In this document: piece by piece, positions 1 to 321 of the stretch
How positions within the stretch are numbered: the stretch's first letter is position 1
How the letters are laid out: every line of letters begins with the position of its first letter
Origin: a virus
Lineage: Duplodnaviria; Caudoviricetes
Direction: 5' to 3' (one strand)
IMG/VR virus record: IMGVR_UViG_3300037247_001786
Coordinates: 32,001 to 96,000 of that record
DNA length: 64,000 bases
The notes under the pieces: model-generated
What the model was told of the DNA's origin: nothing
The model's input: only the letters and a program-made list of their open reading frames with translations
Databases searched by the model: none
Made by a program: the position numbers and the translations under genes

Positions 1-108
1 AACCAAGGTAGGATTCGAACCTACAACCTCTACTTTTTTGTCCAATTGTGGTTTCCCATGCTCAATTGGCTCTTACATATAGCTATCTACCATTTGATAT
101 ACTTGGTT
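1..108 (-). tRNA. tRNA-like gene with a ~38-nt hairpin insert in the anticodon loop; 3' end truncated by the window edge
   Basis: Minus strand reads AACCAAG/CTTGGTT (7-bp acceptor), TATC-AAATGGTA-GATA (D arm), GTAGG-TTCGAAT-CCTAC (T arm), and CTAT/GTAG anticodon stem enclosing ATGTAA + 38 nt + A. Removing nt 72-35 would give loop AUGUAAA (GUA, Tyr-like), but identity is uncertain. Confidence 0.6.
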
Positions 109-163
109 TTAACAGTTGAGACAAGACTTGATACTTGCGAATTCCCGTGTACTTAGGTTCAGA

Positions 164-253
164 CTTACAATACGGGACTCGAACCCGCGTTCCCTCTTTA
201 TTAGGTAATTAATCTAACTTTAAGAGGTGTACTATCCTCTATACGAATCGTAA
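164..253 (-). tRNA. tRNA-like gene with a 25-nt anticodon loop (~18 nt extra)
   Basis: Minus strand: TTACGAT/ATTGTAA acceptor, GTAT-AGAGGATA-GTAC D arm, perfect CCTCT/AGAGG anticodon stem, GCGGG-TTCGAGT-CCCGT T arm, G73, no encoded CCA. The loop TAAAGTTAGATTAATTACCTAATAA contains a TTAG/CTAA hairpin. Confidence 0.65.
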
Positions 254-284
254 TGCGTTATCTTAACGCTACTCAACTTTTTGT

Positions 285-312
285 ATCATATCATATTTAG
301 AATCACTTTCAA
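285..312 (-). promoter_or_regulatory. sigma-70-type (early) promoter for the tRNA-like genes
   Basis: TTGAAA-GTGATTctaaatatga-TATGAT, 16-nt spacer with TGn; the same motif recurs at 13047, 15147, 15194 and 50133. Confidence 0.65.
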
Positions 313-321
313 TAATAAAAA

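Follow-up and report, generated by a model that had tools for sequence, protein, structure and literature searches.

A tRNA-shaped gene of a large phage bears a conserved structured module in place of its anticodon loop and belongs to an uncatalogued phage RNA family

The window analysed here is a stretch of 64,000 nucleotides (nt), bases 32001-96000 of the 461-kb Caudoviricetes phage record IMGVR_UViG_3300037247_001786, and at its very start, on the minus strand and running from window position 108 down to 1, lies a tRNA-shaped gene, hereafter gene A, in which a folded insert interrupts the anticodon loop. Gene A is a member of a phage-specific RNA family absent from the catalogues, the members of which sit in tRNA arrays and share a conserved, covarying structure without a conserved anticodon. 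We consider it somewhat better than an even bet that gene A is a functional, non-decoding and unspliced tRNA look-alike that presents a conserved structured module. Two readings had been offered in the initial annotation, namely a tRNA-Tyr restored by splicing of a relaxed bulge-helix-bulge intron and an anticodon-less mimic. The comparative data are best fitted by the mimic, non-decoding part of the latter; the former is unsupported as stated, the central helix, the anticodon-place triplet and the absence of EndA and RtcB from the phage genome all speaking against it.

The acceptor, D and T arms, which had been described as well formed, are indeed perfect on the minus strand, and U8 and A9 follow directly upon the 5' strand of the acceptor. 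Between the strands of the anticodon stem, which has four pairs only and then an A.A mismatch, stand 43 nt (77-35), starting UGUAAGAG and ending ACAAAAAA; the folding of the ~38-nt insert was confirmed both by RNAfold, where the hairpin is present in the minimum-energy as well as the centroid structure, and by covariation in relatives. With a 43-nt loop instead of a 7-nt one and a sub-gathering score under the Rfam tRNA model (RF00005; 15.7 bits, from the T arm only), gene A is not called as a tRNA by Rfam, and two of its relatives exceed the gathering score of that model (44.6 and 34.8 bits) with the insert treated as an insertion. A check with ARAGORN, which had been suggested at the outset, gives a divided answer: the default run does not call gene A as it stands, the intron search returns only a forced, poor His model, and the deletion in silico of the 38 nt from 72 to 35, which correctly leaves AUGUAAA with a GUA anticodon as had been stated, turns it into a callable tRNA-Tyr(gta).

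Relatives of gene A were located by three routes: synteny with a neighbouring protein, a pattern scan of viral contigs and a pattern scan of metagenome contigs. An exact T-arm/acceptor pattern had 0 matches in viral contigs, window 1-300 was without a blastn match among 50,697 phage records, and single-protein locus searches with the neighbouring 243- and 569-amino-acid (aa) proteins returned no relatives. A word-indexed protein search with the 243-aa open reading frame (ORF), which lies just upstream of a second tRNA-shaped gene (gene B) adjoining gene A, found 37 homologues with 38-70% identity, and the gene order is kept in their contigs, the 243-aa protein being followed by a homologue of gene B, then by one or two genes like A and then by tRNA-Gly(tcc) and tRNA-Gly(gcc). 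At two such loci, L011 and L015, there is a 111-nt gene, the acceptor of which (AACCGAG/CTCGGTT) is one compensatory pair away from that of gene A, and the insert helix of which differs in sequence from that of gene A yet is fully complementary. The tip AUGGGAAACC is identical in both these genes, reached through synteny of the neighbouring protein, and in L070, which lies on the contig of another homologue from the protein route (P0014). Further, a body pattern with a 36-62-nt gap recovered the members L040 and L050 together with a related gene bearing a different, 55-nt insert.

In all, 16 distinct family sequences, gene A included, are known from phage and metagenome contigs, the largest contig being 571 kb. 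The family is defined by a cloverleaf with a 4-bp anticodon stem, an internal-loop strand A-Y-G-N-A-A-G-A-R-Y, a covarying 6-7-bp helix and a tip UGG-GAAA-CC, and gene A displays every one of these features, combining the tRNA body with the AAGA..UGGGAAACC module. All members lie within tRNA arrays on the same strand as the tRNAs, often 0-10 nt from the next one, and three of them encode CCA after the discriminator. Inserts range from 38 to 50 nt, and the bodies are uniformly class I, with a variable loop of 4-5 nt, whatever triplet stands in the anticodon place. The 5' strand of the internal loop separates two subfamilies, AAGAGC (gene A and five others) and AAGAAU (ten members). Among prokaryote genomes (185,579 species, one genome each) there was no member, the sole pattern match being a chance one lacking tRNA shape, and among 2.9 million viral contigs there was no insert-free copy of the body. 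No Rfam release-15 model covers the family, and no description of it was found in the literature. Two side observations concern the contigs of particular members: a phage-encoded tmRNA (Rfam 72.8 bits, cut at the locus end) stands at L040:1-296, 1.3 kb upstream of the family member, and the array of the UCA-type member L060 holds a tRNA with a CUA anticodon, an amber suppressor (L060:1547-1619), so that the phage of that contig may recode a stop codon.

The structure is under selection throughout. Alignments were made of the AAGAAU subfamily (A2) and of the AAGAGC subfamily with gene A (A3), a further alignment (A1) also being used. In A2, 96.5% of cells pair and 22 of the 29 pairs show changes on both sides; in A3 the corresponding values are 99% and 17 of 33. 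None of 500 shuffles reaches these values in either alignment, and slid controls pair in only 36-44% (A2) and 39-50% (A3) of cells. The insert helix itself shows compensatory double changes in six of seven pairs in A2 and five of seven in A3, with 97-100% of cells pairing, and the acceptor covaries at all seven pairs in the AAGAAU subfamily and at five of seven in that of gene A. The short anticodon stem covaries too, its third pair being A-U, U-A, C-G or G-C across members. A covariance model (R1) built from the AAGAAU subfamily alone gives gene A 87.7 bits and the other AAGAGC members 68.7-82 bits, as against 55.4 bits for the best ordinary tRNA (about 180 tRNAs in 434 kb). Taken together, the covariation and the model score mark gene A as a selected, structured RNA rather than a decaying tRNA.

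Conservation of unpaired positions is no less pronounced. G18 and G19 are invariant in all 16 members, and so is AAGA, including in the seven members found without that constraint. In the internal-loop consensus A-Y-G-N-A-A-G-A-R-Y, the N is U, A, G or C, and the segment Y-GNAA-G may form a GNRA loop closed by C-G or U.G, a reading into which 15 of the 16 members fit. For the internal loops, a K-turn, a loop E, a UAA/GAN motif and an 11-nt tetraloop receptor were also considered, and none suits all members; a CRISPR-repeat mimic and a hairpin ribozyme, considered by eye, are without Rfam support. L070, the copy on an independent 155-kb contig, differs from gene A at six places in the body, including a compensatory change in the T stem, and at none in the insert, which shows the insert to be at least as constrained as the body. 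A Logan assembly contig, possibly from the source sample, covers window 1-318 with no difference, and contigs from three other runs span the gene B region only, with diverged sequence.

In the reading that we favour, the tRNA body, with its acceptor, D and T arms and intact elbow nucleotides, would serve as a scaffold. The RNA would be co-transcribed with gene B from a phage promoter, its ends would be cut by RNase P and RNase Z, a CCA end would be added (the phage has its own CCA-adding-enzyme-like gene), and the cloverleaf body would keep it stable. The proximity of members to ordinary tRNAs (0-10 nt) and the CCA encoded by three of them fit such tRNA-type processing. The working, selected part would then be not an anticodon but the module replacing the anticodon loop, which can be pictured as the 4-bp stem, a purine-rich internal loop (A-Y-G-N-A-A-G-A-R-Y opposite ACA.. 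or UAAG..AC), the 6-7-bp helix, an A-rich bulge and a GAAA tetraloop closed by GG/CC. The extended arm, with about 14 pairs plus loops, appears too long for the normal adaptor role on the ribosome. The module would most probably bind a protein or another RNA, a protein partner being the most economical guess; a candidate role, for example, is that of a non-cleavable, non-translating tRNA stand-in for a tRNA-binding enzyme or a defence nuclease.

The strongest contender, which we hold to be unlikely though deserving of serious attention, is that gene A is after all an intron-bearing tRNA. It would have a nuclease of the phage or the host recognise the conserved hairpin and cut near 37/38 and again before the 3' stem strand, with kinases resembling polynucleotide kinase (PNK) and Rnl ligases sealing the halves, the product being a class-I tRNA, the anticodon of which would be GUA in gene A and GAA, GGA or UCA in its relatives. 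Several observations favour it and thereby weigh against an unspliced scaffold, a state that, like the processing route and the target of the module, we infer. In gene A, the outer helix, 3'-strand bulge, short helix, 5'-strand bulge and inner helix follow one another in bulge-helix-bulge topology. After excision in silico, ARAGORN calls a tRNA in 10 of the 16 members, and all five GUA members of the AAGAGC type, that is, gene A and four related members, become tRNA-Tyr. The four triplets found in the anticodon place share a final A with another A after it, which is the pattern of tRNAs that read codons beginning with U, and one member (L060, with UUCAAG) does not fit the GNRA reading of the internal loop. 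Enzymes able in principle to rejoin tRNA halves are also encoded by the phage: an Rnl2-like ligase (112.7 bits) adjoins two P-loop (AAA_33) kinases at genome 282075-284333, and further Rnl-type ligases at 315 kb and 324 kb, the latter matching Rnl1 too, bring the Rnl1/Rnl2-type total to three; the CCA-adding-enzyme-like gene lies at 268749-269153, within an 814-aa frame. In the Lak megaphages, conserved inserts occur in class-I genes called Tyr(GTA) and Phe(GAA).

To these may be added what stands at the slot of gene A in two close relatives, namely a 160-nt gene with a long variable arm (L016:3840-4000 and L018:3246-3407), the acceptor of which is the same as that of gene A in the former and closely similar in the latter. 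Its anticodon stem covaries (CTTAC/GTAAG versus CGTGT/ACATG), and its half-loop UU-GUA is followed by an insert of ~68 nt and then by AA, so that it looks like a bacterial-type tRNA-Tyr with an insert after position 36. Given such Tyr-like genes at the same slot, descent of the family from an insert-bearing tRNA-Tyr is plausible.

Against splicing stands, in the first place, the behaviour of the presumed splice site. The TGT/ACA pairing noticed in the initial annotation does form in the gene A copy, but it does not hold beyond it: the helix shows no double change in any member, keeps only one of three pairs in L060 and is without an equivalent in all ten members of the AAGAAU type; further, in gene A a helix of 3 bp is set between bulges of 5 nt (AAGAG and AAAAA), whereas the canonical 3-4-3 arrangement has a 4-bp helix between two 3-nt bulges that contain the splice sites. 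In protein-spliced introns, splice-site geometry alone is kept. The present inserts, unlike these, are conserved in sequence across very distant bodies. The anticodon-place triplet is equally ill-suited to decoding: six members have GUA there and eight have GAA, GGA and UCA occurring once each, and the triplet changes even among syntenic orthologues whose acceptor stems are almost alike (GUA in gene A, GAA in L011 and L015). A variable triplet beside an invariant AAGA is the reverse of the pattern of a decoder. Position 33 is C rather than the near-universal U in nine of the 16 members. The excised products have an anticodon stem of four pairs plus a G.A or A.A/A.C mismatch and lack nucleotide 26, and six of the ten from the AAGAAU type are not called as tRNAs.

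Nor does the body suit the identity that splicing would confer. Bacterial tRNA-Tyr and tRNA-Ser have a long variable arm, and tRNA-Tyr is marked in addition by A73 and the loop U33-GUA-A37. Gene A has a class-I body with a 5-nt variable loop and a discriminator G, and a GUA loop only after the hypothetical excision. Moreover, the phage already has canonical tRNAs for Tyr and Phe: tRNA-Phe(GAA), called by ARAGORN, and a class-II tRNA-Tyr(GUA) of 84 nt at genome 375824-375907 (+) (L079:4825-4908), with the loop UUGUAAA and A73. The latter is missed by default ARAGORN, is called with -ps85 and scores 35.1 bits under Rfam, and the argument that the phage is without tRNA-Tyr, and that gene A must therefore be it, was accordingly rejected. 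This tRNA-Tyr bears C8 and an A31xC39 mismatch. In the L068 and L072 arrays, likewise, canonical tRNA-Tyr genes stand beside a family member.

As to the suggestion that the phage may encode its own splicing and ligation, ligases and PNK-like kinases are present, as set out above; such sets are also the usual phage kit for tRNA repair. With E values up to 1 allowed, the splicing endonuclease EndA (PF01974) was without a match in the whole 461 kb of the phage, control genomes being matched, and the ligase RtcB (PF01139) had none in the phage genome either. Bacteria are generally without EndA. A more general form of the splicing proposal, which strikes us as distinctly improbable, is that large phages run an EndA-independent, protein-dependent tRNA splicing in which a GNRA-capped intron marks class-I tRNAs for U-initial codons for a phage nuclease and PNK/Rnl enzymes. 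Were it true, these tRNAs would be active only in the infected cell and would be hidden from host defences that target tRNA until spliced.

A further alternative, to which we accord only a small probability, sees in gene A a "t-element", the tRNA shape of which recruits RNase P and RNase Z merely to set the ends of neighbouring transcripts, such as the mRNA of a 159-aa ORF starting 91 nt downstream of gene A, with no further role. The position of gene A in one unit with gene B, 3' of a phage promoter motif and 5' of same-strand ORFs, is as it should be for this, and 80 nt downstream of gene A are conserved in relatives; however, acceptor and T arms would suffice for the purpose, a sequence-conserved 43-nt module with an invariant tip and an internal loop would be unneeded, and most members lie between ordinary tRNAs and not beside mRNAs. 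Lower still in our estimation is the proposal that the insert represents either a small ribozyme with self-cleaving activity or a mobile insertion spread among tRNA genes. The many conserved unpaired positions, the two GNRA-like loops and the recurrence of the word GAAACC in inserts of other tRNA-like genes at the locus would accord with it, but no Rfam ribozyme or intron family matches the inserts even at E up to 5-10, and an empty site was not found in viral contigs. The core of a group I intron comprises P1-P9 and usually exceeds 200 nt. The inserts, at 38-50 nt and matching no Rfam intron family at E up to 10, are too short for one, just as had been pointed out. All carriers, moreover, share one homologous body, with the D loop AATGGTAGA and with anticodon stem and variable loop in common, from which it follows that the insert did not move among different tRNAs. 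Finally, the view of gene A as a tRNA pseudogene in decay or as an artefact of assembly, as the want of a tRNA call by default ARAGORN and Rfam might suggest and as had been named beforehand as what would overturn the case, is almost certainly wrong, for compensatory changes occur in every helix across the 16 members, the identical insert recurs in L070 on a body differing at six places, and a separate Logan contig, though it may come from the source sample, matches positions 1-318.

With respect to its wider setting, the record harbouring the window has 460,978 bp, direct terminal repeats, a G+C content of 34% and an estimated completeness of 100%, and one run, from a marine sediment metagenome, contains the whole stretch. 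ARAGORN finds 36 tRNA genes in the phage genome, 33 of them in an array at 373-386 kb and three near the window start; two of the tRNAs, tRNA-Asn(GUU) at genome 374948-375039 and tRNA-Thr(UGU) at 377811-377895, have long variable arms, which are unusual for these identities. Neither the terminase PF03237 nor the tyrosyl-tRNA synthetase PF00579 had a match in the phage genome. Of the nine ORFs around gene A that were compared with Pfam and PHROGs, only a GNAT acetyltransferase and a PcfJ-like protein were matched, with no bearing on the RNA of gene A. The coordinates of the features of gene A and its immediate upstream neighbours are collected in the table.

Table. Features of gene A and of the sequence upstream of it, in window coordinates
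Feature	Position	Strand	Remarks
tRNA-shaped gene A	1-108	-	discriminator G one base past window position 1 (genome 32000)
Acceptor 5' strand AACCAAG	102-108	-	pairs with 1-7; seven Watson-Crick pairs
Acceptor 3' strand CTTGGTT	1-7	-	partner of 102-108
D arm	84-99	-	stem TATC/GATA (99-96 with 87-84); loop AAATGGTA with G18 G19
Anticodon-stem 5' strand CTAT	79-82	-	pairs with 30-33, 4 bp
Anticodon-stem 3' strand GTAG	30-33	-	partner of 79-82
Internal loop 5' strand A-UGUAAG-AG	70-78	-	includes the "GUA" of the initial annotation
Insert helix 5' strand CCAATTG	63-69	-	pairs with 42-48, 7 bp
Insert helix 3' strand CAATTGG	42-48	-	partner of 63-69
AGCA bulge (62-59) and tip UGG-GAAA-CCA (58-49), GNRA tetraloop	49-62	-	
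Internal loop 3' strand ACAAAAAA	34-41	-	ACA-N-AAAA kept in the subfamily of gene A
Variable loop AGGTT	29-25	-	5 nt
T arm GTAGG-TTCGAAT-CCTAC	8-24	-	partial Rfam match; three of five pairs covary
tRNA-shaped gene B	164-253	-	25-nt anticodon loop; Rfam tRNA 36.8 bits; kept upstream of A-like genes in relatives
Promoter-like site TTGAAA-16 nt-TG-TATGAT	285-312	-	upstream of genes B and A, about 30 nt before B

Gene B is probably co-transcribed with gene A. Covariation of its 5-bp anticodon stem is seen across six relatives (CCTCT/AGAGG, GCTAC/GGTAG, CTGTC/GACAG), and its loop core AGTTAGATTAATTACCTAAT is nearly invariant, with ARAGORN assigning Phe, Stop, His or Ile depending on the relative. 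The spacer between the two genes, window 109-163 (-), is conserved in L070 and L013 and holds a degenerate, T-arm-like hairpin, GCAAG-TATCAAG-TCTTGT, and then CTCAAC. The upstream motif TTGAAAGTGATT...TATGATA occurs at five other places in the genome (82.1, 47.1, 331.4, 177.2 and 430.1 kb), and genes at six or more places are preceded by the form TTGAAAGTGATT(T)TA(A/T)ATATGATA(N)GAT; this repeated motif is probably a phage-specific promoter class. On the other side of gene A, the conserved 80 nt (genome 31920-31999 on the minus strand; L080:2920-3000) are shared with L011, L015 and L013 and begin with a hairpin, GAGCGATTATGCTC, followed by ..GAGTGGCCGGGATGAAA..CACATCACCCCAAG.., and they may be another small RNA or a leader for the ORF that comes next. 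Some 107 nt downstream of gene A stands a terminator-like hairpin, which is not claimed as such because it lies inside the start of that ORF.

Other tRNA look-alikes accompany the family. A second kind, of 105-131 nt with the acceptor AATCGAG/CTTGATT (L013:3562-3693, L015:3380-3511 and L016:3726-3831), lies between the same flanks as gene A in some relatives, stands in tandem with an A-like gene in L015 and has inserts containing GAAACC. Tracts of other large-phage arrays hold tRNA-shaped genes of 100-127 nt with unrelated inserts (L081:5527-5649, identical in L084; L068:9147-9271; L072:250-376; L028:6505-6610), from which it can be seen that insert-bearing look-alikes are common in these phages.

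The insert-bearing tRNA genes of megaphages have been regarded as "enigmatic" since 2019, and for the questions of their splicing, of the enzyme that would cut them and of their job the present family offers a well-defined, testable object, having 16 natural variants, clear covariation, a short conserved module and a fixed position in tRNA arrays. If the RNA stays unspliced, it would be a natural counterpart of the engineered tRNA scaffold and a new class of phage non-coding RNA, with tRNA-binding enzymes or defences as its possible targets; should it be spliced, bacteriophages would have a pathway for tRNA splicing unlike any known in bacteria. Both outcomes would inform our understanding of the takeover of translation by very large phages.

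Among known systems, the engineered tRNA scaffolds have the architecture of gene A: in them the anticodon arm is swapped for a cargo hairpin, and they are processed and stable in E. coli, which speaks for the reading that we favour (Ponchon and Dardel; PMC3753655). The acceptor, D and T arms are kept in them as in gene A; they are, however, man-made, whereas gene A is natural and its cargo conserved. A different parallel might be struck with RNAC and RNAD, which are encoded in the tRNA gene cluster of phage T4 and are, similarly, small stable RNAs lying among phage tRNA genes and matured with them; in contrast to gene A, they are not known to be full cloverleaves with a replaced anticodon loop. 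The function of these RNAs (species 1 and 2) is still unknown (PMC9697503). The bulge-helix-bulge introns of archaea and eukaryotes resemble the insert of gene A in standing at or near 37/38 and, in the gene A copy, in the order of helices and bulges, but differ in the dimensions given above, and the central helix of gene A is not conserved in its relatives.

The nearest phenomenon in phages is that of the Lak megaphages, with their "enigmatic" tRNA introns (Devoto et al. 2019, PMC6784885). As in the family of gene A, these inserts are highly conserved from one genome to another, occupy the anticodon loops of genes in the tRNA arrays of very large phages, and lack both an identified splicing mechanism and an Rfam match. 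The differences are nonetheless several: the Lak inserts are 79-114 nt long (79-93 for Tyr and Phe) as against 38-50 nt, at least those of Tyr and Phe contain a T-arm-like GGTTCGA element, and the Lak genes shown have a 5-bp anticodon stem and U33, whereas the family of gene A has 4 bp, mostly lacks U33 and does not conserve its "anticodon". In the part of the Lak supplementary text that was covered, GGGAAACC is absent, and the Tyr and Phe introns printed there differ in length and content, so that, as far as that text goes, the two sets share the general phenomenon only. Thus, insert-bearing phage tRNA genes as such were already known, and what is new here is the definition of the family, its covariation and the tests that bear against the Tyr-intron reading.

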